A DNA stretch of 64,000 nucleotides from an uncultured Victivallales bacterium (GCA_944390735.1 CALXRL010000031.1:8955-72954); one strand, 5' to 3'. Positions 4,577 to 23,722 are shown, numbered from the stretch's first letter. Made by a program: numbers and translations. Notes: generated from the letters alone by a model not told the origin.

Positions 4577-5332
4577 ATGGATTCTTTTCTGGACGGATTC
4601 ACGATCTGGAACACGGGAGCTCTGATCGCCTCCGCGCTCCTGATCGGACTCAATAAAACGGGCATTCCCGGAATCGGACTGCTTCCGGTTCTGCTTCTGA
4701 CCATGACCTTTCCGACCCGCCTTTCCACGGGACTTCAGCTCGGGATGCTCTGCATGGCGGATGTGATTGCGGTCATCTGGTACCGCCGCAGCGCAAACTG
4801 GCGCCTGATTCTGCGGATGATTCCGGCGGCAGCGGCGGGCCTTTTCGCCGGGACCCTTCTGGTCAATCAGCTGAACGACCGGACAATGGCGGTGACCATC
4901 GGAATCATTGTCCTTTTCCTCTGCGGCATCAGCATTGTCAAGGACTATGTTCTGAAGGATGCCAAACGGATTCCGACGCACTGGGCCTTTGGATCGGCCG
5001 CCGGATTCCTGGCCGGATTTACTACGCTGATCGCGAATGCGGCGGGCCCGGTCATGGCGCTCTATTTCCTGGCGCTGAAACTGGAGAAGAAGGAGTATGT
5101 GGGAACCGGAGCATGGTTCTTTCTGCTGATGAACTGGACGAAACTGCCGATTTTTGTCTGGCAGGAGCGCATTACGATGCAGTCGGCCATCGCGGATCTG
5201 GTCATGCTGCCGTTTATCATTGTCGGCGCAGTCATCGGGATTGTCATGCTGAAACACATCTCGCAGGAGTGGTTCAACAAGATTGTGGTGATTTTCTCGA
5301 TCATAGCCGCGCTGAAGCTGATTTTCTTCTGA
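4577..5332 (+). CDS. TauE/SafE (DUF81) family anion-exporter-like membrane protein
   Basis: 251 aa and strongly hydrophobic with about 7-8 predicted helices. Size and repeat-like halves are typical of the family. Confidence 0.75.
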   Translation: MDSFLDGFTIWNTGALIASALLIGLNKTGIPGIGLLPVLLLTMTFPTRLSTGLQLGMLCMADVIAVIWYRRSANWRLILRMIPAAAAGLFAGTLLVNQLNDRTMAVTIGIIVLFLCGISIVKDYVLKDAKRIPTHWAFGSAAGFLAGFTTLIANAAGPVMALYFLALKLEKKEYVGTGAWFFLLMNWTKLPIFVWQERITMQSAIADLVMLPFIIVGAVIGIVMLKHISQEWFNKIVVIFSIIAALKLIFF

Positions 5333-7464: not shown

Positions 7465-7664
7465 GTAATCAAGAAAACAGTTTTCTGTCTTTCGGGAAGC
7501 CTGGAAGATCCGGGCATTTTTCATGGGGGGATCCGCCGCTGTGAGGGGAGGAGGAATTTGAATGTCCGGTCGGATCAGAAGGGGCCGACGGGGATGGTGT
7601 CAGAAGAAAAGGTGGAGTTGTACGGATGGGGAAGGAGAAAAACGGTCCGCGGGGAGTAAAGTTC

Positions 7665-8717
7665 ATGACGGAGGATCTGGCCAGCCGGATTCTCTCGGGA
7701 GAACTTCCGGTTCGGAGGCAGCTGCCGACGACGCGGGCGCTTGCCAAACTCTATCAGGTTTCGACGGTGACTGCAAGCCGGAGCATCGGCGAACTCAAGC
7801 GACGGGGACTGGTTGAGGCATATCCCGGAATCGGACTCTTTGTTTCGTCTCCCGGGGAGGAGGAGAAACGGGCCTTCCGGAATGCTCACTGCAGCTTTCA
7901 TGTGGGGCTGATTCATCAGAACAAAGCCGGTTTTCATGTGACGGGGGACATTCATTCGGCCTGGTATATCGATCATCTGATGGATGAGTGGATTCAAGGA
8001 GCGGTGCAGCGCTGCGAGGAGTTCGGGTTCCGGTACACGCTGTTCGATCATTTTCCGGAGAGGGGGGATCCCTGTGACGCCTATCTCTGTTCGACCACGG
8101 TTGTGCGCTGGGAGCTTATTTCGGAAATGACCCGGAAACCGGTTCTGTTTCTGTCCTCTCGTCCGCCGGAGGATTTTTCCATTCGGGAGAGCTGGATCTC
8201 GGCGGATCTTTATGCGATGTCGCGGACCGTTGTCTCCCGGCTGATTGAGCGTGGTTACCGGCGGATCGCCTGCTTGTGCGGGATTGACCTCCCGGCGTAT
8301 CACTCCCGGGTGAAGGCGTACCGGGATGTGCTGGAGGCGGCCGGTCTTCCCTTCCATGAGGAACTGGTCTTCCGTTCGGACAGCAGTGAATGGGAGATCC
8401 GCAAGCAGATCGACAAACTGCTTGCGCTTCCGGAAGAGATCCGGCCCGATGCGGTCTACTGTATCAGCGACCGGCGCGCGATTCTTCTTCAGGAGCGTCT
8501 GAGGGAGTTGAAAATCCGAGTGCCGGAGGAGATGGCTATCATGGGGTTCGACGGCTGTGAAGAGGCGCGGCGACGGGGCATCAGCACCATTACCATTCCT
8601 GTCCGGGATATCGGATCCTGGGGTATTTATTTTCTGAACGGGTGGAAGACGGGAATTCTGCATCCTCCGTTTCACTTTCTGTTCTGTGGAGAGATGTATC
8701 CGGGTGAGACTTGTTAA
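7665..8717 (+). CDS. AraR-type chimeric regulator (GntR winged-HTH + LacI/PBP1-type sugar-binding domain)
   Basis: N-terminus [41 protein letters not shown] (GntR HTH). C-terminal pattern [50 protein letters not shown] (LacI-family effector domain). Confidence 0.8.
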
Positions 8718-8767
8718 AACTTGTTTCACTGATTTTTCTTTTTCCCGTTTTTTTCCCGCGATCCATA

Positions 8768-8796
8768 TTGAATTTTTTTTCGGGGTATCGTATAAT
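8768..8796 (+). promoter_or_regulatory. Near-consensus sigma70 promoter for the pseudopilin-like/CAZyme operon
   Basis: TTGAAT, exactly 17 nt, TATAAT. Located 67 nt upstream of ATG 8863. Confidence 0.55.
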
Positions 8797-8862
8797 GAAA
8801 GCATGGAAACGGAGAACCTCTCCGCTTTTTCCAGAGAGAACAACGAAAAAGGAAGATGTAAA

Positions 8863-9591
8863 ATGAAACGGTGCAGAAAAAAATTTACATTAATAGAACT
8901 TCTGGTTGTGATTGCTGTGATAGCGATTCTTGTTTCACTTCTGCTTCCCGCATTGAGCAAGGCGCGGGAATCCGGAAGAAACATCTCCTGTGTCAGCAAT
9001 CTGAAACAGATCGGAACGGGCCTTGCCATGTACGCAAACGACTACGACTTCTATCCGGCGGCATGTCCGGAAACCGGGGAAACGTATACGCAGAACTACT
9101 GGCATTTCAAGGTGAGGCCCTATCTGGGATATCAGCGGGTTCCGAAAAACTGGACAGAAGCGTCGTTGTTCCGGCGGGAAGGAGTTTTTTTCTGTCCGTC
9201 CACGGACATTCTGTACAATGACAGCGGGTTTTCAGACACGCTCTCCTACTCCATGAATTCCTTCGGTTATCTGGTTTCCTACAAAGCATTTACGCCTGCA
9301 AGTGCTCTGGACGCACCGGCCACTCTTTATACGCCGTATTATACAAAATCCTCCAGCAGAAGCAAGGAATATTCGCCGGGGAAAGTCATTTTTGTCAGTG
9401 AACTGGGACGGAACGTCAGCGACGAAAAGGGGTATACGCATCCGGCCATCCGGAATTATGATTTCTACATCGGAGGCGGCGAAAATTTACCCTCATTCCG
9501 GCATCTGGGGGCAAAAAATTCCCTTCAGTTCGATTTGCATGTGGAACGGGTGATTCTGCCGAGAATCGAATGGTATCTGACACTGAAATAA
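8863..9591 (+). CDS. Pseudopilin-like protein with prepilin-type N-terminal methylation domain (DUF1559 type)
   Basis: MKRCRKK|[44 protein letters not shown]. The C-terminal motif is degenerate (FDLHV). The 59-aa N-terminal extension in the ORF track is non-coding and contains the promoter. Confidence 0.85.
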
Positions 9592-9609
9592 AAGCATTGG
9601 GAGCAAACA

Positions 9610-12543
9610 ATGAATTTCCGCATTCTTTCCGCCGTCTTCTGCAGTCTTCTAATTTCCGGAACACTTTTCGCCGCCGTCGCTGTGGATTTCTCAAAAGATT
9701 CGCTGATCCATTATCCGCTTCCGAATCATCCGGAGGATCGGATTCGGATCGGAAAATCGGAAATTCCGGGAAAAGGAAAAACGGGAGTCTCCCTTTCCTG
9801 GGAGACGGAACATTATCATTACACGCAGACTGGAATTCTCAGGAACCCGCTTCCGGAGTTTCAGAAATTCCGGAAAATGGAACTGATGTTGAATGTGTTT
9901 GTGGAACCGGGAAGCAGGGTTTCCCAGTTCGGACTGCGTTTCCGGGATGCGGAAGGGGAAATCTTTCAGATCTCCTCGGAACGACTGACGTCGGGAAGCA
10001 ATGGAAATCAAAGAATCGCGCTGCTTTTTGATGCGGAAAAACTTCCTCCGTCCTGGGGAACGAAACAGAACCGGAAAATCGACTGGCCGCTGCGATTGTT
10101 CGGCATGACGGTTTCCTTTCCTCCCCAGAGCGGCCGGGGAAGGGTCGTTTTCGAATCCATCGAAACTCTGAATCCGGATCGTCTTCTGGATTCCGTGGAG
10201 GTCAGGACGGATACGGGGCATCCGCTTCATCTGCTGCTTTCCGAACATGGGAATCCGCGTCTTTCCTTCCGGAACACGCTGAATCGGCCGGTCTCTTTTC
10301 TGGCGGAATGGAAGCTTTCCGATTTCCGGGGCAAAACGCTGGCGGCCTCCCGGAAACGGATGAATCTGCCGCCGGAAAATACGATCGCCGTTCCCATTCC
10401 GGGGAAATTTCCACTGGGAATCTTTTATGTCGATTACAGACTGAAGATGACGGACGGTTCCGGAGAAACGTCCGGCAGACGCTCGTTTGCCTTCCTTCTT
10501 TCTTCCGGAGAAAAAAAGGCTCGGCAGGGAGAATTTCTGTTCGGCGTCTGTTCCCATCCGGGACGAATTCCGCCGGAAGAACAGGAGCTGGAGGCTCTTG
10601 CGGCTTCTCTCTGCGGAGCACGGTATCTGCGCACGGGAATCTCCTGGGAAAGTCTCGAACGGCAAAAAGGAAAGCGCGATTATTCCCGTTTCGACCGCGT
10701 TGTCGATACGTTCCTGAAATATGGCATTGAAACGCAGGTCCTTCTTGCATTCACCCCCCGCTGGGCCGTTTCCGGAGAAGGAAGTCCCGTTTATCCCAAG
10801 GACCGCAGGCTCATGTTCCGACTCCCCGATTACGATGCCTATGCCTCTTTCGCAGAGGAAACGGCTCGACGCTACAAAGGAAAGCTGCGCTTTTTTGAGA
10901 TCTGGAACGAACCGGATATCTCATTCGGAAATTTTACAACGGAGCAGTACCTCAAACTTCTCCGTGCCGGATATGAAGGTGTCAAACGGGGGAATCCGGA
11001 AGCCGTCGTCATGACCGGCGGTTTCACCTATATGCCGCTGAGCGATGTGCCTCCGAAACCAGGAATGATGCGCCGGACACTCATCGAAGGAAAAGGCTTC
11101 TATGACATCCATGCGTTTCACGGCCATGGTCCCTTCGAACATTACCGGCCGCAGATTCCCGCCATGCTCGAAATGCGGAGGAACGGCAGGATCTCGGCGC
11201 CATGGTATGCCAATGAGACCGCCGACCATTCGATTCGCGGAGAGGTCCATCAGGCTGTCACGCTGTTTCAGAAACTGATTTTCAGCTGGGCAAACGGAGC
11301 CATGGGCTACAACTGGTACGATCTGCGGAACGATGGATATGATCGTTATGAGAAAGAACATAATTTCGGGATGCTGACACGCGATTTCCAGCCGAAAGCG
11401 GTCTATCCGGTTTACGGGATGCTGACACGATTGTTCGCTCCGGCCTCTTTTCGGAAAACGAGGAATCCCGGCGGAGGAATCTATCTGTATGAGTTCGAGA
11501 CGCCCGGGGCAGTTCTTCTCCCGATGTGGCGCGACGAGGGATCATTGCCCTCCGTCCTGGCATGGAAGACGGATGCCCGGAAAGCGGAGGCGGTGGACCT
11601 GATGGGCAACAGAACCGCGCTTGCCATGGAGGCCGGATTCGTGCTGGCGACTCCGGAACAGATTCCCTGTACGCTGATTCTCCATGGAGCGAAAAAAGTG
11701 GAGTTTGCCGGATTCGCGGTTCAATTCACTCAGCCGGGACTTCAAATTCCGGGGACTCCGGCCTATCTGCCCTTTGTTCTTCAGAATCCGTTCCCGCAAG
11801 AGCGTTCCTTCCGGATCGGAAGCGGATCACATTCCGCCGTGTATCCGCTGAAAGGCGGGGCGGAACAGCGGATTCGTATTCAGACCGATTCTCCGGAGTT
11901 CTGCTGGCAGCTGGGCGACTCCTTCCGGGGAACGCTTCCGGTTTCGTTTCTCCGGGCCCGTGTGATTTCAGCGGAAGCGCACCGGAAACCGGACTTTGTG
12001 CTGAACCGGGATGAGAACCGGGTGGAGCTCTTTCCCAACAATCCCCTGATGCGGCACATGACCTGGAAAGGGCCGGAGGATCTTTCCGCGGAAATCCGGC
12101 TCAGTCTCCGGAAGGATTCCCTGATCCTCGAGGCGGAAGTGGTGGATGACCGGCATGTTCAGCCCTATGCCCGGTCCATGGTCTGGCAGGGGGACAACAT
12201 TCAGGCGGCGTTCCGGTTTCCGAATCAGACCGGGAACTGGGAGATCGGTCTGAGCCGCCTTGATTCCGGGAAGGCGGAAGTCTTTTTCTGGGACGCTCCC
12301 CGGAAGGCGGATCCATCCGCCGTTCGACTCTCGACGGATCGGAAGGGCAACCGGACATGTTACCATGCGGAGATTCCCTTTTCCCTGTTCGGAATCAGAC
12401 GCGGGGATCTCGCCTGCGGATTCCGCTTCAATCTGCTGGTCAACGACAATGACGGCGATGGACGGAAAGGATGGCTGCAGATCGCTCCCGGTCTTGGAAA
12501 AGACAAGTCTCCCGTTCATTACCCCGTTTTGATTTTCCCCTGA
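9610..12543 (+). CDS. Secreted clan GH-A (GH5/GH39-like) glycoside hydrolase with C-terminal CBM9-like domain
   Basis: 977 aa. Signal peptide MNFRILSAVFCSLLISGTLFAA. Acid/base motif FFEIWNEPD, later ANETA. C-terminal NLLVNDNDGDGRKGW is CBM9/DOMON-like. Confidence 0.7.
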   Translation: MNFRILSAVFCSLLISGTLFAAVAVDFSKDSLIHYPLPNHPEDRIRIGKSEIPGKGKTGVSLSWETEHYHYTQTGILRNPLPEFQKFRKMELMLNVFVEPGSRVSQFGLRFRDAEGEIFQISSERLTSGSNGNQRIALLFDAEKLPPSWGTKQNRKIDWPLRLFGMTVSFPPQSGRGRVVFESIETLNPDRLLDSVEVRTDTGHPLHLLLSEHGNPRLSFRNTLNRPVSFLAEWKLSDFRGKTLAASRKRMNLPPENTIAVPIPGKFPLGIFYVDYRLKMTDGSGETSGRRSFAFLLSSGEKKARQGEFLFGVCSHPGRIPPEEQELEALAASLCGARYLRTGISWESLERQKGKRDYSRFDRVVDTFLKYGIETQVLLAFTPRWAVSGEGSPVYPKDRRLMFRLPDYDAYASFAEETARRYKGKLRFFEIWNEPDISFGNFTTEQYLKLLRAGYEGVKRGNPEAVVMTGGFTYMPLSDVPPKPGMMRRTLIEGKGFYDIHAFHGHGPFEHYRPQIPAMLEMRRNGRISAPWYANETADHSIRGEVHQAVTLFQKLIFSWANGAMGYNWYDLRNDGYDRYEKEHNFGMLTRDFQPKAVYPVYGMLTRLFAPASFRKTRNPGGGIYLYEFETPGAVLLPMWRDEGSLPSVLAWKTDARKAEAVDLMGNRTALAMEAGFVLATPEQIPCTLILHGAKKVEFAGFAVQFTQPGLQIPGTPAYLPFVLQNPFPQERSFRIGSGSHSAVYPLKGGAEQRIRIQTDSPEFCWQLGDSFRGTLPVSFLRARVISAEAHRKPDFVLNRDENRVELFPNNPLMRHMTWKGPEDLSAEIRLSLRKDSLILEAEVVDDRHVQPYARSMVWQGDNIQAAFRFPNQTGNWEIGLSRLDSGKAEVFFWDAPRKADPSAVRLSTDRKGNRTCYHAEIPFSLFGIRRGDLACGFRFNLLVNDNDGDGRKGWLQIAPGLGKDKSPVHYPVLIFP

Positions 12544-12586
12544 AATGAAAAGGAACCCAGATGCCGAAAACAGAGAGGTCATCCCG

Positions 12587-14371
12587 ATGAATTCGATCCG
12601 GATCGCTTTCCGCGACTTTCTGCGCCCCGATACCAAAGAGGACGCTTCCGCCGCCTTCCGAGCCCTTTCGGAACAGCTTGCCGGGCTTCCCGGCGACTCT
12701 CCCGTCTCCGTTCACTTCGAGCCCGGAAGGTATGATTTTTATGAAGAAGGCGCCTTCGAACGCGTCTGCTACATTTCCAATCATACGCAAACCCGTCGGA
12801 AAAAGATCGCTCTGCTGATCGAAAACCGCAGAAATGTCATCCTGAACGGCAACGGCGCCCGGTTCCTGTTTCATGGAACGCTCATTCCGGTCGCTTTTCT
12901 CCGGACCGAAAACTGCGTGCTGAAAAATCTCTCCATCGACTATGAGTTTCCGCAGCTTCATCAGCTTGTCATCCGGGAGGTCGATGAGCTCCATGACGAG
13001 CTTGTCTGTGAACTCCTGCCCCGGGAGGAGTTCCGCATCAAGGACGGCTGCCGCCTCCGCTTTCTTCACGAACACAATCCGGAGTATTCCCTTCAGTCAA
13101 TCATGCCTTTTGAGGAAAACGGAAGACTCTGCTGGAACAAGGCGGATCTCTCATTTCAGCCGGAACGGATTGTCGATCTCGGCAGCGGCAGACTCCGGCT
13201 CCTCTCCTGCGGTCTCTCCGGACTCCGGCCCGGCTGCCGACTGGTCCTGCGTCCGGCGCTGCGCCCGACTCCCGGAATTTTTCTTCATCACGCCGACCGC
13301 ACAGAAATCGAACAGGTCACCGTGCACTATGCGTTCGGCATGGGACTTCTCGCCCAGATGACCGAAGACATTACTCTCCGTTCCTTCTCCGTCCGGCGCA
13401 GGAGTCCGGATGATCCCCGCTTCTTCACCACTCAGGCGGACGCCACCCATTTCTCCGGATGCAAAGGCCGGATCCTTTCCGAAAACGGTCTCTACGAGGG
13501 CATGGCCGATGACGCCATCAATGTGCACGGAATCTATCTGCGCATTCTGGAACAACGGGACCGCCGGACTATCCGCGCCTCCTATATGCACCGCGAAACC
13601 TGGGGATTCGACTGGGGGGAAAAGGGGAATGTCGTCTGCTTCCTCCGCTCGCGCACCATGGAATATGAACCGGAGAAACGCCGCATCGCCTCCATCCGGC
13701 CCGTGGATTCCGATACCGAATCGGGGGCGAAGGTGTTTGAAATCGTCTTCGAGCAGGATCTTCCCCCGTTTGCTCCCGGGGAACCGTACGGAATCGAAAA
13801 CCTCACCTGGACTCCGGAAGTCCTGTTCCGCAACAACATCATCCGGAACAACCGTGCTCGCGGGGCTCTGTTCAGCACTCCGAAACGGGTGGTCTGCGAG
13901 AACAACTTCTTCGATCATACCCACGGATCCGCCATTCTGCTCTGCGGGGACTGCAACGGCTGGTTCGAAACCGGAGCCTGTCATGAGGTCTTCATCCGGA
14001 ACAACCGCTTCCGGAACGCGCTCACCGCCATGTATCAGTTTACGGAGGCCGTGATCTCCATCTATCCGGAAATTCCGGACCTGAGTGCGCAGAAACAGTT
14101 CTTCCATTCGAACATCACCATTACGGGAAATACCTTTGAGATCTTTGATGCGCAGGTCCTTTACGCGAAATCAACGGAACACCTTATTTTCTCGGACAAT
14201 ACCATCCTTCACAATCACGATTTTCCGCCATTTCATCGGAACCGGTTTCTGTTCCTGCTGGAAAAAACCGCGGATGTCCGCATCGTGAACAATCATTTCG
14301 ATGTTCCGTTTGTTCCGGAAAAAGACATCTGCATCCGGAACGGCAACCCCGGTGCTGTCACTGTAAGCTGA
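12587..14371 (+). CDS. Right-handed beta-helix glycosidase, GH110 (alpha-1,3-galactosidase)-like
   Basis: GRYDFYEEGAFERVCYISNH...NGNGARFLFHGTLIPVAF..LKNLSIDYEFP, and later NNRARGALFSTP. I recall this pattern from GH110 beta-helix enzymes. An alternative start at ATG 12545 exists; 12587 has the better SD (agagagg). Confidence 0.6.
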   Translation: MNSIRIAFRDFLRPDTKEDASAAFRALSEQLAGLPGDSPVSVHFEPGRYDFYEEGAFERVCYISNHTQTRRKKIALLIENRRNVILNGNGARFLFHGTLIPVAFLRTENCVLKNLSIDYEFPQLHQLVIREVDELHDELVCELLPREEFRIKDGCRLRFLHEHNPEYSLQSIMPFEENGRLCWNKADLSFQPERIVDLGSGRLRLLSCGLSGLRPGCRLVLRPALRPTPGIFLHHADRTEIEQVTVHYAFGMGLLAQMTEDITLRSFSVRRRSPDDPRFFTTQADATHFSGCKGRILSENGLYEGMADDAINVHGIYLRILEQRDRRTIRASYMHRETWGFDWGEKGNVVCFLRSRTMEYEPEKRRIASIRPVDSDTESGAKVFEIVFEQDLPPFAPGEPYGIENLTWTPEVLFRNNIIRNNRARGALFSTPKRVVCENNFFDHTHGSAILLCGDCNGWFETGACHEVFIRNNRFRNALTAMYQFTEAVISIYPEIPDLSAQKQFFHSNITITGNTFEIFDAQVLYAKSTEHLIFSDNTILHNHDFPPFHRNRFLFLLEKTADVRIVNNHFDVPFVPEKDICIRNGNPGAVTVS

Positions 14372-14428
14372 AGCCTTCCATCCGGATGCGGTCACGGAAG
14401 TGTCACATCCGGAAAGTTCCATTCCCTG

Positions 14429-14812
14429 TTACACCGGGGTGTCCGTCTGTCGGTCAAACACCTCCTTGGCGAGAAAGACCGCATTGACCGCGGCGGGAAA
14501 TCCCGCATATACCGCAAGCTGAATAAACACCTCCAGAATCTCTTCCTTCGAGATGCCGACATTCAGCGCCATATTGATATGCGATTTCAGCTCCTCCTTC
14601 GCATACCCCAGGGAAGCAAGAGAAGAGAGAATCACCAGTTCCCGCTCCCGCTTGCCGAGTCCCGGACGGGAATGCACATCCCCGAACGCAAACTCCTTGA
14701 TGTAGGTGTTCAGATCGGGCGCGATCTCACACAGTTTCGCTCCGATGGGGCTGTTGTTGTTCATCTCCCTGAGCCGGTTCCATCCTTTTCGATAGCGTTC
14801 GGATTCTTCCAT
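14429..14812 (-). CDS. Carboxymuconolactone decarboxylase (CMD/AhpD-like) family protein
   Basis: 127 aa. [80 protein letters not shown] is the typical CMD-family core. Confidence 0.85.
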
Positions 14813-15747
14813 TTTTCCTTTTTTCCGTTCTGTTCTGTTTTTGCTGTGTTGATTATGTTCAGACCGAATCCGGAGAGAATCCGTTCGGCGTGTTCCATGT
14901 CCTGCGCGGAGGGCGCGGGGACGGACGGCATGGTGTCCGCATGTCCCACCGTCTCATATTTGGAACGGGCCAGGGAGTGATAGGCCAGCAGCCGGACCGC
15001 AGTGATGTTTTTCCGTCGGGAAAGGAACGTTCCGGCCCCGATGAGATCCGGATCCGACAGATTGTATTCCGGAATCAGCGGCATCCGGATTTCAATCGGC
15101 ACTCCGCATTCGGAAAGGCGGGTCAGGTTTTCCAGAATCCGCTCGTTGGGCGCCCCGGTGAACTCCCTGTGTTTCCGGGAATCAATCTCCTTGAAATCGT
15201 AGAGGAAGAGATCCGTCAGCGGCAGCACGCGCTCGAAGGCCTCCCACGGCACATTGCCGCAGGTATCGACGGCGCAGGAGATGCCTTCCTTCTTCAGAAT
15301 CCGGAACAGTTCCGCGCAGAATTCCGCCTGAAGCAGCGGTTCGCCGCCGGAAACGGTGGCTCCTCCGTTGGAATATTCATAAAAAATGCGATCCTCCAGA
15401 ATCCGGTTCGCGGCCTCTTCCGCGGAGATCGGCTGTCCGTACAGAACCAGAGCGTCGTACAGACAGGCGGAGACGCATTTTCCGCAGGCGATGCATTCGG
15501 AGCGGTCGATCCGGTGTTCGTTCCCGGCAAACGAATGGCAGTGGCGCGGACAGACTCCCGCACACGCTCCGCAGAGCACGCATTTGTTTTTCCGGAAGCC
15601 GAGTTCCGGCTCGCGGCGGACACTCTCCGGATTGTGACACCAGACGCATGCCAGAGGACACCCTTTCAGAAAGAGAGTCGTCCGGATTCCCGGTCCGTCA
15701 TGCACGGCGAAGCGTTTCCATTCGACCATGAATCCTTCGGTTTTCAT
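14761..15747 (-). CDS. Glycyl-radical enzyme activating enzyme (radical SAM)
   Basis: 328 aa. [25 protein letters not shown] (CX3CX2C) plus two ferredoxin-type clusters [12 protein letters not shown] and [15 protein letters not shown] overlap with the upstream GRE gene. Confidence 0.93.
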
Positions 15748-17852
15748 GCGATGTTCTCCGCCTGTGCAATGAAGGTGTTCTGCTCCTCGGGACGCAGGTC
15801 GGTGAACCGCACGTTCCAGCCGCAGACGCGCACCTGAAGATTGGTATACTTTTCCGGATGCCGTTGTGCATCCCGGAGCGTTTCGGCATCGAAGATATTG
15901 AACTGAAGTCCGCTTCCGCCCGCGGCGATGAAGGCCCGGATGATCGCGGTCAGGACCTCGATTCCCTCCTCTCCGCGGACTGCGCTCGGATGAAGCATCA
16001 GATCCAGGCAGGTTCCGCAGGGAAAGGCGGAAAAATCAAGTTTCAGCACGGAATTCATCAGGGAGGTGATTCCGTTTTTATCCATCGGAATGCAGGCGTC
16101 CATGTTTTTGGAAACGGGAGTTCCGGCTTTTCGGCCGTCGGGAAGGGCGCCGATCTGTTTGCCGCGCTCCACGACGGACTGTCCGTAAAGAGAGGCAAAG
16201 AAATGTCCGCCGCGCGCGTTCTCCTGACGGTTGACCAGCGGGGAGACAAATTCGGCGATTTCGCGCCCGATCCGATCCGCCCTTTCATCGTTGTTGCCCC
16301 ATTTCGGCGCACGGTTCCGGGCGATCATCCGGAGCTTTTCCCAGCCGTTCCAGTCGGCGGCAAGCGCTTTGCGCAGTTCCGGAAGCGTGCAGAGCTTCTC
16401 CTGATACACCAGAAATTCCACGGCCGCCAGCGAATCCACCGCCTCGGCGAAGAAGCTGATGACGCATCCGGTGCTGTTGTATTCCACGCCGCCCTGCGAG
16501 ATATCCCGTCCGGTCTCCATGCAGTGGGCGAAGGAGCCGGCGAGAAACGGCGAGGGATTCACTTCGCTCCAGAGTTTCTCGCAGCGGCACTGCTGCTTCC
16601 GCAGAAGAAGAACATCCTCCTCCATCATCTCGAAATACGCATGTTTGAACGCTTCAAACGTGGGATACTCCTTTCCGTTTCGCAGCTCCTGAAGGAGGAT
16701 CGCGGGCAGGTAGAGATGGGTCGCTCCGGAGGTGGAAATCTCCTTGCCGAGCACGGCGGGTTCGTAACAGCCGATGGGAATGAAATTTTCCGCATCCTCG
16801 CGGGTCCGTCCATGCCGGACAAGTCCCTGAATCACGACGTCATTGTTCAGAAAGACGATTCCGTTGCGGCCGTCGCGAATGTTTTTTGCGGCAAGCTCCA
16901 GAAAATCCTGCGGCGTGTCCGGCGTGACCCGGACGGAGAGTTTCGGATCAACCGTGTTCATCTTGTGATACACCTCCATCCCGAGATACGACAGTTCGTT
17001 GATTTCCGGTCCGAAACAGAAATTCTTCCCGAAGCGTGTCCCCTGCCATTTCGCATAGAAGGCGATCCAGAAATATTGAATCAGTTCTTCCGCCGACTCC
17101 CTGGTGAGGCGTCCGGCCTTGAGATCGCGGCGGTAGAAGTCGATGTACAGGCGGTCGAACCAGCCCATGGTGCGGACCTCCTCTCCCTCGATTTCCTGAA
17201 GATCATGAAACAGATACGCCAGCTGAAACGCCTCCCGGAGCGTCTGCGGCGGCCGTTCCGCAAGAGCCAGAAGTGCCTCGTTTCCGGAGGCTTTCCCCAG
17301 ACGGCGGCAGAGTTCAATGGCTCCGTCATACACCATCACCGCGGCACGGTGCAGAGCGGTGGACCCTTTCGCTGCCCGGTCGCGCAGACCGGGAAATCCG
17401 AGTTTCAGAATCGCCATCCAGTCGGGGGAGGTGTGGCTGGTGTCGATCATATAGCCGATGGAATGCTCCATGTCGATTACGAACATCTTCTGATCTCCCG
17501 GCACGGAATGATCGGAAAACTCCTTCGGCCAGAGTTCATCGACCCATTTCCAGCGAAGTTTCTGAAACAGAGATGCGCAGGGATCCACTTTTCCTGCGAA
17601 ATAATTGTCGGGCTCCGGAGCAATCCGCGCTTTTGTGCAGACCAGATGAAGCAGAAAGGCTTTGGTCAGGACATGCTCCTCTCCGGGATTCTCCCGGCAA
17701 TGCGCTTCAAAAAGCGTCTGGATTCCCTGCTCATCCAGGCCGCTTTCCGGATCGTAGACAACATGTTCATACTGTTTTTCCAGACGTTTTCTGGCTGAAT
17801 CAAACAATTCCATAATGGCACTCCTTTCGGGAAAAGGAAATCCCGTTTTCAT
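15744..17852 (-). CDS. Glycyl radical enzyme, PFL2/dehydratase-lyase class, substrate unknown
   Basis: 702 aa. Glycyl-radical motif [12 protein letters not shown] at the C-terminus. Thiyl loop IPIGCYEP (Cys-x-Glu). GGVEYN and ALPDGRKAG are conserved GRE blocks. Confidence 0.93.
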
Positions 17853-17861
17853 TCCAGGTAA

Positions 17862-18560
17862 TTATGTTGTCATCTGGAGGTACGCTTCAAAATAGCGTCG
17901 TCCCAGTTCGCGTGCGGATGCGGAGGAGAAATGCAGTCCGTCGCCCTTGTCCGTCAGGCCCTCCGCGGAGACCAGGGTCAGATCCGACAGTTCGGTGACA
18001 ACGTTCCGGAGATCGGCGTCGATCCGCGGAAAATCATAGGGTCCGCCCTTCCGATAGTGTCCCAGTTCCCCGCAGAGAAACGGAACTTCGGAAAGCGGCA
18101 GATCCTCGCGAAAGTTCCGGATAACCTCTTTCAGATCCTCGGCATAATGAGGATTTTTCTGTTTGGCATCGGTCTCCCCCTGATGCCAGAGCACCGCGGC
18201 GAACCGGCCCCGTTCAAGCGCGGCTTTTGCCCGCCGTACTGCCTCGTCATACGGATGCTCCTGATCGTTCCACGGAGAACATCCGCCCCGTTTCCATGCG
18301 GAAATGGGAGTCCCCCCGACCGCGGTCGGAACTAAACCGACTGTGCAGTCCGGATTGGCCTCCAGCAGAAGTCGTCCGAATGTGCGCCCCGGACCGACGC
18401 CTGCAAATGCGCGGTCCTCCGTCACAGGCTCCACCGCCGGCACCCATTGCAGATCGCGATTGATCTTCATGAGTCCGGGAATTTCCACCCGGTCTTCCTC
18501 TTCCACTTCTCCGCGACCGGCCATGTTGGATTGTCCGGCAAGAAGCACAAGGAGCCACAT
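17862..18560 (-). CDS. SASA-family (sialate O-acetylesterase-like, SGNH) esterase, no signal peptide
   Basis: MWLLVLLAGQSNMAGRG (GQSNM block), ..WHQGETD... Only the C-terminal 232 aa of the 560-aa track ORF look coding. A GTG 5 codons upstream (18575) is an alternative start. Confidence 0.8.
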   Translation of the reverse strand: MWLLVLLAGQSNMAGRGEVEEEDRVEIPGLMKINRDLQWVPAVEPVTEDRAFAGVGPGRTFGRLLLEANPDCTVGLVPTAVGGTPISAWKRGGCSPWNDQEHPYDEAVRRAKAALERGRFAAVLWHQGETDAKQKNPHYAEDLKEVIRNFREDLPLSEVPFLCGELGHYRKGGPYDFPRIDADLRNVVTELSDLTLVSAEGLTDKGDGLHFSSASARELGRRYFEAYLQMTT

Positions 18561-18710
18561 TCCTTTTGTTTTCACCTTTCCGTTCCCCTTTGTTTTCTGA
18601 AGAACCGTTTTCCTTTTTCTGTTCTTTATTATAGCTTTTCCGAATGAAAATGGAATGCACGAATCCATCAGAATATTATGATTTTGTGACATTGCCGGAA
18701 AAAAGAACAG

Positions 18711-18739
18711 TTGAAAAAATATGAGAAACGCGGTATAGT
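18711..18739 (+). promoter_or_regulatory. Sigma70-type promoter of the AraC regulator
   Basis: TTGAAA, 17 nt, TATAGT, then SD aaggag and ATG 18762. This argues against the TTG start at 18711 used by the ORF track. Confidence 0.5.
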
Positions 18740-18761
18740 CCGAAAGCAAGGAGATTCTCTT

Positions 18762-19583
18762 ATGGCCGTCGAAGATAAAAAAGACATCTATCGCCTGGCA
18801 GACAGTCTGAACATGCGGTTTTCCCATTTTGCCAGAGGGACGTATCCCTGTTGTTCCCGCACCCGTTTCACGGTCAACCGCCTGATTCTGGTTCTGGAAA
18901 ATCCGAACGGGGAGGAGAACTGCATGGCGGATGATTCGGAACATCATGTCATGGTTCCGGGAAACTTCTATCTGGCTCCGGCGTTTCACAGCACCATTTT
19001 TCATTTTGACGAGGGGGTGCGTTTTTTTTCCATCCACTTCAATCTGGAGCTGTTTCCGGGAGTGGATCTGTTTTCCCGTCAGAACCGGATTCTTCACGGG
19101 AGTGCGGAGAATGTCATGGAGCGGACGGAATCGGCGTTCTCCAACCGGAGCGGACTGGCGGGCGCGCTGGAACTGAAAACCCTGATCTATGATCTGGTCT
19201 CGGGCTGTCTGAAACAGATGGATCCCGGGAGTCTGGAACTTGTTTCGCGATTCGCTCCCTATCAGAAGCTCATCGACTACATTTCCGGTCACTGCACCGC
19301 TTTGCTCACCGTGGAGGATCTGGCGCAGCAGATGAAGATGCGGCGCGATGTCTTTTCCCGCAAATTTAAAGCCGACACGGGCATTTCGCCGAAACGCTTT
19401 TTCCACCGTCTTCTTGTCGACCGGGCGACGCAGCTTCTCCGGATGCCGGACATCACCGCCCAGGAGGTCGCCTTTCAGCTGAACTTCAGCAGCGAATACT
19501 ATTTTTCCCGTTTTTTCAAACAGCATCTGGGGATTTCCCCGCATCGGTTTCAGCAGCAGTACCGGATTCGGAAAATGGTGTGA
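18762..19583 (+). CDS. AraC family transcriptional regulator
   Basis: C-terminal double HTH: TVEDLAQQMKMRRDVFSRKFKADTGISPKRFF..AQEVAFQLNFSSEYYFSRFFKQHLGISPHRF. N-terminal cupin-like sensor. Confidence 0.9.
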   Translation: MAVEDKKDIYRLADSLNMRFSHFARGTYPCCSRTRFTVNRLILVLENPNGEENCMADDSEHHVMVPGNFYLAPAFHSTIFHFDEGVRFFSIHFNLELFPGVDLFSRQNRILHGSAENVMERTESAFSNRSGLAGALELKTLIYDLVSGCLKQMDPGSLELVSRFAPYQKLIDYISGHCTALLTVEDLAQQMKMRRDVFSRKFKADTGISPKRFFHRLLVDRATQLLRMPDITAQEVAFQLNFSSEYYFSRFFKQHLGISPHRFQQQYRIRKMV

Positions 19584-19622
19584 AAATGCGGAAAATCCTC
19601 ATGTTTTTATTCCGATTTTCCA

Positions 19623-19651
19623 TTCCTTTTTCATGGATTCTGTGCTATAAT
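19623..19651 (+). promoter_or_regulatory. Putative extended -10 promoter upstream of the DUF4965-like gene
   Basis: TGcTATAAT (TATAAT at 19646-19651) with a weak -35 (ttcctt), 32 nt upstream of ATG 19684. SD aaggag. Confidence 0.4.
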
Positions 19652-19683
19652 CTATTTCATACAACCGGAAAAAGGAGTGTTGC

Positions 19684-21711
19684 ATGAGTTGTGAATCTGT
19701 TCGTTATCCCGCGTATCCTCTTGTGGTGCATGATCCGTATTTTTCAATCTGGTCGCGAACCGACCGTCTTTCCGATTCCTTCACCTGTCACTGGACGGGG
19801 AAGGGACAGACCATCGCCGGACTGATCCGGATCGACGGCAAAGCCTTCTGTTTCATGAGCGACATCCCCGGCGCTCCGAAGATGAACCAGACTTCCGTCC
19901 GCGTCCTGCCGACCCGGACGATCTATACGTTTGAAGAGTGCTCTGTCCGTTTCCGCCTGACCTTTCTGACGCCCGCTCTTCTTCACAAGCTCAACGTTCT
20001 TTCGCGCCCGATCACCTATCTCTGTTTTGACGCGGAATCGCTCGACGGGAAAACGCACGATCTTGCCGTCTATTTCGACGCCGACGGCGCAATCGCCGTC
20101 AACGAACCCACCGACAAGATCACCTGGAGCCGCTATCGTCATTGCGATCTGGATCTGATGTGCTCCGGTTCCGCCGAACAGAAAATTCTCTCCAGAGCGG
20201 GCGACGACCTGCGCATCGACTGGGGCCATCTTTACCTCGGGCTCCCCTGGAAGTTCCACGGGACAACCGCGCTGGAATCGAATCGTGTGACCCGGAATCA
20301 GTTCCTCTCCTCGGGAACGCTTCCGCAGACCGACAATCTCAACATGCCGCAGGCCGCAAAACGCGAATGGCTCTGCATGGCGGCTGTCCTCCCGATGAAG
20401 GCGGAAGCGGGAAGAACCGATTCCGCGTATGGCATTCTGGCCTATCATGATGCCTTCTCCATTGAATACCTGTATCGCAAACTGCCCGGATACTGGACCA
20501 TGGAGACCGCCTCGTTTTCGGAACTGCTCTCCCTCGCGGTCCGCGAAAAGGAGGCTCTGGCGGAGGAGTGCGCCCGGTATGATGCGGAACTGCTTGCGGA
20601 TGCGGAACGCCTTGGCGGAAAACAATACGCCGATCTCTGTGCCGGGACTTTCCGACAGGCGATCGGGGCGCACAAACTTGTCGCCGATCTCGACGGAACT
20701 GCGCTCTTCTTTTCCAAGGAGAACTTTTCGAACGGCTGCATTGCCACGGTGGATGTCACCTATCCTTCGGCTCCGCTTTTTCTTCTCTGTCAGCCGGAGC
20801 TTGTGAAGGGGATGCTGATTCCGATTCTGGAATATGCGTCCAGCCGGAGCTGGAAGTTCCCGTTTGCTCCGCACGATCTGGGGACCTATCCGCTGGCAAA
20901 CGGGCAGGTCTATGGCGGCGGAGAACGCTCCGAACAGAATCAGATGCCGGTGGAGGAGTGCGGCAATCTGCTGATTCTGGCCGCCGCTCTCGCCAAATTC
21001 CATCACGAGACGGACTTCATCCGGAAATACTGGGAAAAACTCACCCAGTGGGCGGAATATCTTCTGGAAAAGGGGTACGATCCGGAAAACCAGCTCTGCA
21101 CCGACGACTTTGCCGGACATCTTGCCCACAATACGAATCTTTCCATCAAGGCGATCGTGGCGCTGGGCGGATATGCGCTCATGGCCCGGATGCTCGGCGA
21201 GAAGGAGCGTGCGGACCGATACGCCGCAACCGCCCTCGACTATGCCCGCCGCTGGGTCAGAGACGCCGACGACGGAAATTGTTTCCGTCTTGCATTCGAC
21301 CGGAAGGGCACCTGGAGCCAGAAGTACAATCTGGTCTGGGACCGTCTTCTGGAGCTCCATCTTTTTCCCGCGTCTGTGGCGGAAAAGGAGCTTGCGCATT
21401 ACCGGTCGGTGCAGAACCGGTATGGTCTTCCGCTGGACAGCCGCAGAACCTATACCAAAATCGACTGGATTCTCTGGAGCGCCGTGCTGACCGGAAAAGA
21501 GGACGATTTCAAAGCGCTTGTCGAGCCCGTTCATCGCTGGATGACGGAAACGGTTTCCCGGGTTCCGATGACCGACTGGTATGAGACGGTCGGGGATGGC
21601 CGTCAGGTCGGGTTCCAGGCGAGGTCCGTGGTCGGCGGTCTCTTCCTCCGTCTGCTTGCCGACGAAGAGGTTCGGGAGAAATGGAGGAAGAAAAGCAGCC
21701 TCCAACGCTGA
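19684..21711 (+). CDS. DUF4965/DUF1793 (glutaminase A-like) putative glycoside hydrolase, cytoplasmic form
   Basis: 675 aa. N-terminus YPAYPLVVHDPYFSIWS..HWTGK..GLIRIDGKAF and a C-terminal (alpha/alpha)6-like region are typical of this family. No signal peptide. Confidence 0.7.
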   Translation: MSCESVRYPAYPLVVHDPYFSIWSRTDRLSDSFTCHWTGKGQTIAGLIRIDGKAFCFMSDIPGAPKMNQTSVRVLPTRTIYTFEECSVRFRLTFLTPALLHKLNVLSRPITYLCFDAESLDGKTHDLAVYFDADGAIAVNEPTDKITWSRYRHCDLDLMCSGSAEQKILSRAGDDLRIDWGHLYLGLPWKFHGTTALESNRVTRNQFLSSGTLPQTDNLNMPQAAKREWLCMAAVLPMKAEAGRTDSAYGILAYHDAFSIEYLYRKLPGYWTMETASFSELLSLAVREKEALAEECARYDAELLADAERLGGKQYADLCAGTFRQAIGAHKLVADLDGTALFFSKENFSNGCIATVDVTYPSAPLFLLCQPELVKGMLIPILEYASSRSWKFPFAPHDLGTYPLANGQVYGGGERSEQNQMPVEECGNLLILAAALAKFHHETDFIRKYWEKLTQWAEYLLEKGYDPENQLCTDDFAGHLAHNTNLSIKAIVALGGYALMARMLGEKERADRYAATALDYARRWVRDADDGNCFRLAFDRKGTWSQKYNLVWDRLLELHLFPASVAEKELAHYRSVQNRYGLPLDSRRTYTKIDWILWSAVLTGKEDDFKALVEPVHRWMTETVSRVPMTDWYETVGDGRQVGFQARSVVGGLFLRLLADEEVREKWRKKSSLQR

Positions 21712-21723
21712 AAGTCAACCACA

Positions 21724-23283
21724 ATGGAGCGGAAAATGAAAACGATCTACTTCAATGAGGACAACGAACATTTTTATGCGTGCCACCCCGCATCCGACAT
21801 GACGGCGGAGGGTCTGCGCGCCCTTGTCGATTCCTACGCGGAAACGGGGGTTGTCAAAGGCATTCTCTTCTGTACGAATCTTCAGCGCGCGCTGTTCGAC
21901 AGCCGTGTCTGGGAGCGTTTCCGCGACATTGAACATGCCGGGCCGCTTCCCTATGCGGACAATCTTCGGCTGCTTTCGGAACGGGGAATCGATCAGTTTT
22001 CCGTCTGGCTGAAGCGCTGTTCCGAGCTGGGAATCGAGGGCTGGCTCTCCATGCGCATGAACGATTCGCATGGACTCAAGGAGGCGCGGATCAACAGGAC
22101 CGAATCGCGTCTTCATCTCTGGCCGAGCCGGAAATGGCGGGAGAATCCGCAACTCCGCCGGGCGCCGTACCGTTCCGAACGCAGCTGGGAGGGGTCCTAC
22201 AACTATCTTCTTCCCGAAGTGAGGGAGCATCATCTGGCGCTGGTTGCGGAACTGCTCGAACGATACGATCTCTTCGGACTGGAACTCGACTGGATGCGGT
22301 GGGGGATGATGTTTCCGCCCGGATTCGAGCGGGAGGGACAGGCGGTCCTGACGGATTTTGTCAAAGAGGTGCGCCGTCTGGCGGATCAGGCGGAACGGCG
22401 TCTGGGACATGCGGTCCGACTGGCCCACCGCCTGCCCGCGCATCCGGAATCCTGCCTGAACTTCGGATACGATGTCATCGCCTGGGGGGAGGCCAGATGC
22501 GTGGATATGGTCACGCTCTCCTCCTTTCTGAACTGCAACTCCATGGATCCGCCGATCGCCATCTGGCGGAAGATGCTTCCGGAAGGAACGTTCATCAACT
22601 ATTATGCGGAACCGGCGACAATTCCGTTTCCCCGTCCGGGGGCCGTGGTCATCCGCGACGAGATCCTGCTTGCCGCCGCCTCCGCCGCCTTTTCCTGCGG
22701 CGCGGATCACATCTATCTTTTTAATGAGTGCTACCGCGAAAGCGAGGATCTGCCCCGGCTTCAGCACCTGATGAGAGCCATGTCGGATCCGGAAGCGCTG
22801 AAGCATGAGATTCGTCTTTTTCCCGTCACCTACACTCCCGCGATCATTCCGGGAGAATCCAACCGCACCGTTCTTCCCGTTGCGCTGATGCAGGAGGGGA
22901 TGGGGTACGATCTCGGACGCATGGAGGACAACATCACGTTGCGTCTTCCCGCGGGCCGATGGGAGCCCGATTCGCGCTGTTATCTGCGGCTCGGATTTTC
23001 CGGAGAGACTCCGATGGAGGCGTTGAGGGATCTTCCGGTCCGTGTGAACACCGTGCCGGTGGAGCGGGCGGAATGGCCGATGGCTTCGGAATTTCCCGCC
23101 GGACGCTCCTTCTATACGCCGTATCCGTTTCTGCCGCCGGAGGCCGTGCATTCGCTGGCCTGGAAAGTGCCGGTACGACTGCTGCACGAGACATTCAACG
23201 CCGTGGAAATTCTTCCTCCGCATGTTGCGGGAAAGATTGTTTGGGCGGATCTTCTGCTTCTGCCCGCAAAGCGGGAATTGTGA
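21724..23283 (+). CDS. Hypothetical protein, glycoside-hydrolase-like TIM barrel (GHL-type), cytoplasmic
   Basis: 519 aa. WLSMRMNDSHG, NYLLPEVREHHLALVAELLERYDLFGLELDWMRW resemble GHL6/GHL10-type barrels. Alternative start at ATG 21736. No signal peptide. Confidence 0.5.
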   Translation: MERKMKTIYFNEDNEHFYACHPASDMTAEGLRALVDSYAETGVVKGILFCTNLQRALFDSRVWERFRDIEHAGPLPYADNLRLLSERGIDQFSVWLKRCSELGIEGWLSMRMNDSHGLKEARINRTESRLHLWPSRKWRENPQLRRAPYRSERSWEGSYNYLLPEVREHHLALVAELLERYDLFGLELDWMRWGMMFPPGFEREGQAVLTDFVKEVRRLADQAERRLGHAVRLAHRLPAHPESCLNFGYDVIAWGEARCVDMVTLSSFLNCNSMDPPIAIWRKMLPEGTFINYYAEPATIPFPRPGAVVIRDEILLAAASAAFSCGADHIYLFNECYRESEDLPRLQHLMRAMSDPEALKHEIRLFPVTYTPAIIPGESNRTVLPVALMQEGMGYDLGRMEDNITLRLPAGRWEPDSRCYLRLGFSGETPMEALRDLPVRVNTVPVERAEWPMASEFPAGRSFYTPYPFLPPEAVHSLAWKVPVRLLHETFNAVEILPPHVAGKIVWADLLLLPAKREL

Positions 23284-23320: not shown

Positions 23321-23722
23321 TCACTCTTCGGCGCGCTGGAAGAGAAGCTGAACGTGCCGTGTGCGGGGCCCGTCGTATTCGCAGAAATAGACGCCCTGCC
23401 AGGTTCCGAGGGAGAGCCGGCCGTTGCGGATCGGAAGCGTCAGGGAAAATCCGGTCAGGATGGCTTTCAGATGGGCGGCGCTGTTGCCTTCACAGTGCTG
23501 ATAGAAGGGTTCATCCTGCGGAATCAGGGAGGAGAGCTTGGCCAGAACATCGTGTTTGACATCCGGATCGGCATTTTCGTTGACCGTGATTCCGGCCGTC
23601 GTATGAGGACAGAAAATATGACAGATTCCGCAGACGATCTCTCCGGGAATCCGCTCATTGATCCGTTCGGTAATGTCCTGAATTTCACAGGTCCGGCTTG
23701 TTCGGATTGAGAATTCCGGCAT
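23321..23722 (-). CDS. yjbQ: YjbQ/UPF0047 family protein (secondary thiamine-phosphate synthase enzyme)
   Basis: 133 aa. CHIFCPHTTAGITVNENADPDV..DL, HCEGNSAAHLKA, and LGTWQGVYFCEYDGPR are family hallmarks. Confidence 0.9.
   Translation of the reverse strand: MPEFSIRTSRTCEIQDITERINERIPGEIVCGICHIFCPHTTAGITVNENADPDVKHDVLAKLSSLIPQDEPFYQHCEGNSAAHLKAILTGFSLTLPIRNGRLSLGTWQGVYFCEYDGPRTRHVQLLFQRAEE

Follow-up and report, generated by a model that had tools for sequence, protein, structure and literature searches.

Glycyl radical enzymes (GREs) of anaerobic gut microbiomes convert choline to trimethylamine, dehydrate hydroxyproline, turn isethionate into sulfite and carry out anhydro-sugar glycolysis. 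Here, we analyze a GRE operon in a 64,000-nucleotide (nt) stretch of DNA from an uncultured Victivallales bacterium (GCA_944390735.1, CALXRL010000031.1:8955-72954), which is called the window below and is numbered from its first letter. The closest described enzymes are the B12-independent glycerol dehydratase (GD) of Clostridium butyricum (PDB 1R8W/1R9D), propanediol dehydratase (PD; PDB 5I2A/5I2G), the YbiW/PflD isomerases (PDB 8ID7, 8ID0 and 8YJO), which cleave the rings of 1,5-anhydroglucitol-6-phosphate and 1,5-anhydromannitol-6-phosphate, and the trans-4-hydroxy-L-proline dehydratase HypD (PDB 6VXC). All carry the Cys-X-Glu (CXE) motif that marks GRE 1,2-eliminases and isomerases and whose Glu hydrogen-bonds the substrate hydroxyl (PMC13450708). 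In CXE chemistry, the Cys takes a hydrogen from the carbinol carbon, the hydroxyl loses its proton to the Glu, and an adjacent C-O, C-N or C-S substituent is then expelled by the ketyl radical; for YbiW/PflD, the bond cleaved is a C-O bond of a sugar ring (PMC13450708). According to a 2026 review of the superfamily, whole GRE clades remain unassigned (PMC13450708).

The window locus is a complete example of one unassigned clade, with a regulator, an esterase, a GRE, an activase and an accessory protein. The GRE has intact motifs and the fold of its superfamily, is separate from the characterized clades, and is linked through recurrent partners and gene fusions to carbohydrate esterases, glycosidase-like domains and sugar oxidoreductases. 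On balance, we lean towards reading the operon as an AraC-controlled cytoplasmic system in which a CXE-type radical C-O eliminase or isomerase acts on a de-O-acetylated carbohydrate. The locus contains the following features (aa, amino acids; ORF, open reading frame; CMD, carboxymuconolactone decarboxylase):

17862-18560, minus strand: SASA-family esterase, 232 aa (PF03629, E = 2.2e-57)
18525-18536, minus strand: GQSN motif of the esterase, at residue 9
15744-17852, minus strand: GRE ORF, 702 aa (PF02901, E = 1.7e-78; PF01228, E = 6.5e-22)
15744-17813, minus strand: GRE from its preferred start, Met14, 689 aa
16752-16781, minus strand: Cys loop of the GRE, with Cys349, Tyr350 and Glu351
15804-15839, minus strand: glycyl radical loop of the GRE, with Gly665
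14761-15747, minus strand: GRE-activating radical-SAM enzyme, 328 aa (TIGR02494)
15637-15660, minus strand: CX3CX2C motif of the activase (CPLACVWC)
14429-14812, minus strand: CMD/PcaC-like protein, 127 aa (PF02627, E = 5e-21)
18762-19583, plus strand: divergent AraC-family regulator, 273 aa (HTH_18/HTH_AraC)
18711-18739, plus strand: sigma-70-like promoter match upstream of araC, TTGAAA-17-TATAGT, 10 of 12 positions matching

The esterase, GRE, activase and CMD genes on the minus strand are a genuine four-gene operon. All four ORFs and the divergent araC ORF were found where the original prediction had drawn them, Pfam and NCBIfam confirmed their families, and the ATGA overlap of the GRE stop and the activase start at 15744-15747 is genuine. 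Two other junctions needed revision. GRE homologs are 676 to 691 aa long and align from Met14 of the query, and an AAGGAG Shine-Dalgarno sequence lies 7 nt upstream of the Met14 ATG. Because of both, we take the GRE to be 689 aa long (15744-17813), with position 17813 as its most likely start, and the 9-nt gap that had been proposed between esterase and GRE becomes one of 48 nt. The 52-nt overlap of activase and CMD is present here but is specific to the window: relatives with 87 to 89% identity (L005 and L013) have a TAA stop 5 to 12 nt before the CMD ATG and an activase of 308 aa rather than 328. The overlap (14761-14812) exists because the window activase has lost the stop that its relatives keep, and some 20 extra codons are read.

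Motifs support the GRE as a catalytically intact CXE-type enzyme. Its PFL-like barrel domain and C-terminal glycine radical domain (PF02901 and PF01228) are those of the superfamily, the RVxG[FWY] motif is present as RVCGW around Gly665, the catalytic Cys349 lies in GCYEP, and GGVEYN and ALPDGRKAG are also found in the translation, so that all four of the predicted hallmarks are there. The C349-Y350-E351 triad is the CXE motif by which the 1,2-eliminase/isomerase class is defined (PMC13450708). The Tyr between Cys and Glu, singled out in the original prediction, is invariant across the family, as G-C-Y-E-P-A is found in 34 of 34 aligned homologs and in all subclades. Down to about 51% identity, homologs do not vary in the Gly loop, the Cys loop, the CXE motif or about 100 further positions; invariants of the closer family include G-C-Y-E-P-A, His127, Trp132, Glu207, Arg214, Glu358 and the Gly loop. 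An AlphaFold model made with 34 homologs (pLDDT 93, pTM 0.92) has a complete barrel and glycyl radical domain. The enzyme is indeed shorter than all solved GREs, though its likely length is 689 aa and not the 702 aa first given, and the roughly 100 absent residues are spread over the N terminus and several surface insertions instead of forming one domain. Its shortness and the aberrant C-terminal extension of the window activase could be taken as signs of a decayed or nonradical homolog that has no catalytic function. The invariance of the catalytic loops, the completeness of the model and the state of the activase make such decay extremely unlikely.

The activase is the adjacent gene expected of a cognate radical-SAM partner. 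It scored 325 bits against TIGR02494, well above the cutoff of 174, and all cluster motifs are present: the CX3CX2C motif and two ferredoxin-type CxxCxxCxxxC motifs. The activases of GD and PD are likewise of the multicluster type.

The GRE lies outside the functionally characterized clades. It was placed by its NCBIfam equivalog scores, by profile scores against the PDB and by Foldseek identities, and it fell far below every curated cutoff: 292 bits against 678 for the PFL2-3 subfamily (TIGR01774), 257 against 1100 for HypD, 221 and 217 against 1000 for HpfG and HpsG, 210 against 1109 for the PflD type, 199 against 1050 for CutC, 165 and 150 for HPAD and IAD (cutoffs in the 1000-1150 range), and 84 against 994 for pyruvate formate-lyase (TIGR01255), in place of whose Cys-Cys there is a single Cys followed by Tyr-Glu. 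Identity to solved structures was 18 to 25%. The best PDB sequence match was GD (226 bits, or 354 with the family profile), with PD, A. fulgidus PFL2, PflD, HypD and others close behind. Among the solved structures, PDB entry 9RCO proved to be a PD as well. The model matched all solved eliminases and isomerases with a TM score of about 0.85 at only 21 to 25% identity, with no preferred partner by Foldseek. Second only to the PFL2-3 subfamily model, HypD was the best equivalog match for both GRE and activase, but the activase reached 315 bits against a cutoff of 425, the GRE is 23% identical to HypD, and the window has no proline-metabolism genes nearby.

GD and PD are the best sequence and fold matches. 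They have in common with the window GRE the PFL-like ten-stranded barrel, the C-terminal glycyl radical domain and the CXE Cys loop, but the window enzyme is about 100 residues shorter and has C-Y-E for C-V-E and RVCGW for RVAGY. Pocket positions were assigned by profile alignment to solved GREs, with residue roles taken from PMC13450708. In these alignments GD His164 and Tyr640 are kept, as His127 and Tyr543, but GD Asp447 corresponds to an invariant Gly363 and GD Tyr339 falls within a segment that is absent from the GRE family. Moreover, GD His281-Ser282-Ile283 and HypD Asp278-Ala-Phe align to Glu212-Val213-Arg214, which puts an invariant Arg on the 281-283 strand and opposes Glu212 to HypD Asp278 and Arg214 to its Phe. 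His127, Glu212, Arg214 and Tyr543 are polar and invariant in the family, and the pocket would be polar and unlike every known one. A GD/PD-type dehydratase might still be envisaged, acting on a small polyol from glycan fermentation, such as propanediol from fucose or rhamnose, and having nothing to do with its neighbors. That GD and PD lead the PDB matches, that the CXE motif and the counterpart of GD His164 are conserved and that one related locus adjoins a GH95 fucosidase-like gene would all fit. We nonetheless hold such an activity to be distinctly unlikely, as the score falls short of the TIGR01774 cutoff, the 22 to 25% identity to GD and PD is no nearer than that to CutC, HypD or PflD, and two GD substrate residues are substituted or deleted. 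The context differs too, since genes for microcompartments, aldehyde dehydrogenase and alcohol dehydrogenase are all absent from the ORFs scanned nearby, and recurrent links to esterases, GFO/IDH/MocA oxidoreductases and fused carbohydrate-active enzyme domains point to larger sugars.

Sequence searches place the window GRE in a large metagenomic clade of at least 120 clusters at 50% identity. A word-indexed search returned 529 relatives, all of about 680 aa, and an exhaustive HMMER search covered 1.84 billion cluster representatives (50% identity), of which the best 150 were analyzed. All of these scored between 255 and 835 bits, more than the best characterized GRE in the PDB search (226 bits). 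C-Y-E was found in 121 of the 150 and an R(V/L/I)CGW Gly loop in about 110. Pocket-aligned positions were near-identical in the window group, a sister group (S2) and a "mid" group (at least 53% identity). GREs as a class are already known and unassigned clades are to be expected; the C-Y-E clade has its own active-site signature. Literature searches gave no description of it or of the esterase-GRE-activase-CMD combination, which the original prediction had thought undescribed.

Natural gene fusions tie the clade to carbohydrate processing. Among the best representatives, in the same superclade, are proteins in which the GRE is the C-terminal part:

P0237: SASA-GRE, 1025 aa
P0274: AXE1-SASA-GRE, 1440 aa
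P0208 and P0225: AXE1 (CE7)-GRE
P0141: GH78-like-GRE
P0213: GH2-like-GRE
P0220: PF06439 (3-keto-disaccharide-hydrolase-like)-GRE
P0239: GRE after an 840-aa region of no assigned family

Three of the seven fusion clusters are taken as real because they were recovered on independent contigs, with five full-length SASA-GRE, nine P0239-type and three GH2-type members. C-Y-E and the Gly motif are kept in all fusions. In P0237, the SASA domain is 39% identical to the window esterase (E = 3e-43), the GRE domain matches the window GRE over its entire length, and the domains follow one another in the order of the window genes. Because the SASA-GRE fusion mirrors two adjacent genes of the window, Rosetta-stone reasoning indicates joint action of esterase and GRE and carbohydrates as the substrates of the clade. 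At three fusion loci examined (L094, 624-3701; L095, 8001-12530; L096, 8001-12323), the genes stand in codirectional arrays of GH2, GH127, GH92 and GH39 genes with AraC regulators, and no activase was found within 6 to 8 kb. All seven fusion clusters have signal-peptide-like hydrophobic N termini, and the stand-alone members do not. If read as export signals, these N termini are hard to reconcile with cytoplasmic radical installation. To our knowledge, an exported GRE would be unprecedented. Fusions, signal peptides and periplasmic GREs are not mentioned in the superfamily review (PMC13450708).

The window esterase is itself of a carbohydrate type. A SASA domain with the GQSN motif covers residues 5 to 229 of 232, and no signal peptide was seen either with the ATG at 18560 or with an alternative ATG at 18692 (276 aa), in keeping with the cytoplasmic location first proposed. 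The full SASA/SGNH domain and the GQSN nucleophile motif are common to the acetylxylan-esterase-related SASA/DUF303 proteins 1ZMB and 2APJ and to the sialate esterase NanS (3PT5). The window protein is far nearer 1ZMB ("acetylxylan esterase related"), its best PDB match at 103 bits, than it is to NanS or the sialate 9-O-acetylesterase; NanS and a second sialate esterase (7KMM) reached 25 to 27 bits, which does not support a sialate O-acetylesterase. It also differs from these proteins in being cytoplasmic and cotranscribed with a GRE, and in having relatives fused to one.

How far the gene order is conserved bears on whether the partners matter. The survey covered 93 related loci and the window, 94 in total, with genes called from stop-to-stop ORFs, phmmer and cross-locus BLAST clustering, which replaced a greedy longest-ORF calling misled by antisense ORFs. 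A scan of genome contigs with the window GRE protein gave four loci only, at 87 to 89% identity. The nearly identical loci are in metagenome-assembled genomes labeled uncultured Victivallales or Lentisphaeria, and those GRE homologs that bear names are all from Lentisphaerae or Victivallales. The exact esterase-GRE-activase-CMD order, proposed as a conserved unit, is found only at 87% identity or more. Because these relatives are syntenic across the flanks as well, that conservation is uninformative alone, but the partners recur elsewhere. An activase is downstream of the GRE in 50 of the 94 loci (many contigs stop there), and a divergent AraC gene is upstream in 29. Four lineages have a co-oriented CMD gene immediately behind the activase: the window group and, with their GRE identities, L014/L015 (65%), L026 (57%) and L044/L046 (48%). 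In a second lineage (L017, L024, L025, L026 and L052), whose GREs are 57 to 59% identical to that of the window and about 80 to 85% identical among themselves, a co-oriented SASA gene is directly upstream of the GRE, and one or two GDSL-like SGNH esterase genes come after the SASA genes. GDSL-like esterases were found at L017, L025, L026, L052 and L086, and no operon esterase had a signal peptide. A 713-aa protein at L044, grouped with the esterases by BLAST (cluster c4), was dropped, as neither Pfam nor phmmer gave it a SASA domain.

It could be argued that the esterase and CMD genes are chance or merely coregulated neighbors and that the GRE acts on a noncarbohydrate metabolite. The restriction of the exact order to close, syntenic relatives is what this argument predicts, and neighborhoods elsewhere are highly variable, with some GRE copies having no adjacent activase. 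Against this, the position of CMD behind the activase is shared by four lineages, a second lineage has SASA and GDSL esterases immediately upstream of its GRE, esterase and GRE are fused in SASA-GRE, AXE1-GRE and AXE1-SASA-GRE proteins, and the recurrent partners are all carbohydrate-type enzymes. We judge chance adjacency improbable, and the coupling of esterase with GRE that the original prediction had supposed withstands the survey. We conclude that the esterase and the CMD protein are recurrent accessories of the GRE and not core components, because most family members have neither.

The commonest partners in the survey are GFO/IDH/MocA oxidoreductases (10 loci) and NAD-dependent epimerases/short-chain dehydrogenases/reductases (SDRs; 14 loci), paired in 8 loci and mostly co-oriented directly upstream of the GRE. 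The GFO partners are nearest to inositol 2-dehydrogenase, levoglucosan dehydrogenase, DgpA and 1,5-anhydro-D-fructose reductase. Such relatives call to mind a YbiW/PflD-like ring-opening isomerase ("anhydroglycolysis") working on a nonphosphorylated anhydro-sugar or cyclitol, whose supply or use in other family members would fall to reductases or dehydrogenases of the GFO type. This is a subcase of the explanation we favor. Support for it also comes from the CXE motif, from a TM score of 0.85 to 0.88 on YbiW/PflD, PflD being the second-best fold match, and from the sugar-ring C-O cleavage that YbiW/PflD enzymes perform. The PflD-type equivalog score is far below its cutoff, however, identity is 21 to 23%, the middle residue of the Cys loop is a different one, and the operon has no kinase, PTS or aldolase genes that would give it a phosphosugar context. 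The window operon itself also has no GFO or SDR gene, and we regard the ring-opening variant as unlikely.

The CMD protein matches PF02627 over its full length, and the prediction of a CMD/AhpD-like protein is correct as to the CMD family but not as to the AhpD type, since there is a single Cys and no CxxC as in alkylhydroperoxidases of that type. Nor does it qualify as a 4-carboxymuconolactone decarboxylase, scoring 79.6 bits against 155.7 for the PcaC equivalog (TIGR02425), and there are no protocatechuate pathway (pca) genes among the neighbors scanned. Within the PcaC/CMD family (PDB 2AF7 and 4G9Q), its best PDB match was 2AF7 (114 bits), an archaeal PcaC-like protein of unknown role. Unlike PcaC, it is always found directly after a GRE activase.

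From these observations, we infer a carbohydrate class of substrate, C-O elimination or isomerization, an order of steps and a role for the CMD protein. An acetylated, glycan-derived sugar would enter the cell and be sensed by AraC, and the cytoplasmic SASA esterase would strip its O-acetyl groups and expose the free hydroxyl that the next step requires. The adjacent radical-SAM activase would place a radical on Gly665. Cys349 would become a thiyl radical and abstract a hydrogen from a carbinol carbon of the carbohydrate-derived substrate, Glu351 would deprotonate the carbinol hydroxyl, and the ketyl radical would expel the neighboring C-O substituent, be it hydroxide, ring oxygen or glycosidic oxygen. 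Return of the hydrogen from Cys349 would yield a deoxy-keto product, which the PcaC-like CMD protein, where present, probably processes by tautomerization or decarboxylation.

Several points weigh against this reading. The operon contains no transporter, kinase or aldolase that would name the substrate, and carbohydrate C-O chemistry is suggested by sequence, a model and gene context. Pocket residues were assigned by sequence alignment to solved GREs and not from inspected coordinates, and the aligned positions differ in the GFO/SDR-associated and deep subclades. The ORF calling was home-made, on mostly short metagenomic contigs. With the esterase and CMD genes missing from most family members, the pathway logic may differ between subclades. 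Finally, we know of no link between CMD proteins and sugar chemistry.

If sugar-directed C-O cleavage is correct, anaerobic glycan catabolism gains a radical route in Lentisphaerota and their relatives. More tentatively, and with greater doubt than confidence, we speculate that GREs with C-Y-E and R(V/L)CGW are an unrecognized class of radical carbohydrate-active enzymes that cleave C-O bonds on deacetylated sugars or glycosides, some of them exported. Such a class would carry out radical dehydration, ring opening or glycosidic-bond elimination and would offer an oxygen-free alternative to hydrolysis for recalcitrant linkages. If the N termini of the fusions do export GRE domains, glycyl radical chemistry outside the cytoplasm is implied, and these proteins raise the question of where and how the glycyl radical is installed. 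The stand-alone pair of GRE and activase is tractable for reconstitution by enzymologists.

Related loci show further arrangements. The commonest operon form is GFO/IDH/MocA, NAD-epimerase/SDR, GRE and activase, in that order (e.g., L004, 5977-10927; L031, 5847-10954; L042, 1718-6826; L047, 3412-8369). L031 has in addition a short-chain dehydrogenase, a URO-D-like protein and another GRE, and a transketolase N-terminal subunit is downstream at L042. A second, distant GRE paralog directly follows the shared activase at L017 (10970-13165) and L026 (11375-13570) and also at L020, L024, L025 and L036, giving the order esterase(s)-GRE-activase-(CMD)-GRE2. The paralog is 731 aa long, scores about 290 to 311 bits to the window GRE, has C-Y-E and RVCGW and is below all NCBIfam cutoffs. 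In a deep subclade of about 40% identity (L073 and L077-L082; e.g., L081, 1263-1814), the GRE has no adjacent activase and comes after a gene for a small Sm_multidrug_ex (PF06695) membrane protein and two short ORFs that lack annotation. In another lineage (L008, 3858-8052; L019; L057), the GRE is preceded by co-oriented genes for DUF58, GDSL lipase, low-molecular-weight phosphatase and PAP2 proteins, again with no adjacent activase, and a convergent gene encodes a 1,965-aa Peptidase_C10/LRR protein.

Upstream of the divergent regulator's coding sequence, the start at ATG 18762 is preceded by its own AAGGAG Shine-Dalgarno sequence, and the AraC product has the C-terminal double helix-turn-helix of its family (PF12833, E = 7e-18; PF00165, E = 2e-13). 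TTG 18711 is no start codon; it opens the -35-like hexamer TTGAAA. The promoter predicted for araC is present as a sequence, but such sites occur in the region at the chance rate (2 found, 1.7 expected). An Rfam scan of 14000-20000 gave no match, neither riboswitch nor leader.

Putative glycoside hydrolases stand on both flanks of the operon, and the putative glycan-degrading neighbors comprise these two and a GH39-like 977-aa protein:

12545-14371, plus strand: right-handed beta-helix protein with a weak GLAA-B-type barrel match, convergent neighbor
19684-21711, plus strand: DUF4964-DUF5127-GtaA six-hairpin protein, putative glycoside hydrolase

Both listed genes are syntenic in close relatives. 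Farther away, a GntR/LacI-type regulator is accompanied by a DUF1559 prepilin-like gene, and there are also a GH2-like protein, metK and ahcY. At 7626-12543, the GntR/LacI-type regulator, the DUF1559 protein, which has a prepilin N-methylation motif, and a very large protein, unannotated or GH-like, form a cassette that looks like a typical glycan-utilization unit of Lentisphaerota; like cassettes recur beside GRE loci, downstream at L001-L004 and at L014 (4545-5339) and L029 (2538-3326). A methyl-cycle block contains S-adenosylmethionine synthetase (676-1878), a PfkB kinase (1985-2989) and S-adenosylhomocysteine hydrolase (3011-4495); beyond it, at 4577-5332, comes a TauE/SafE-family ("sulfite exporter") gene, which belongs to another gene block than the GRE operon and lies about 9 kb away from it. 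Microcompartment shell and aldehyde dehydrogenase genes were absent among the ORFs scanned between 676 and 29117, as first claimed; the accompanying claim of no sulfite genes is true of the immediate neighborhood only, TauE/SafE being the sole sulfite-type gene in the vicinity. The TauE gene prompted us to consider a sulfonate or sulfate C-S/C-O lyase, which was not supported: the gene is in another block, and in our reading of the alignment the GRE family has His127 and Asp131 where the sulfonate-binding Arg and Gln of IslA/HpsG would fall.

Long antisense ORFs at 15858-17798 (plus strand), 19744-21705 (minus) and 21715-23223 (minus), of 646, 653 and 502 aa, have no family support and are composition artifacts of 56% GC DNA opposite real genes. 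After the GtaA-like gene, a 519-aa ORF (21724-23283, plus strand) matches nothing in Pfam or NCBIfam and is syntenic in close relatives, and it adjoins a UPF0047-family gene at 23321-23722 on the minus strand.

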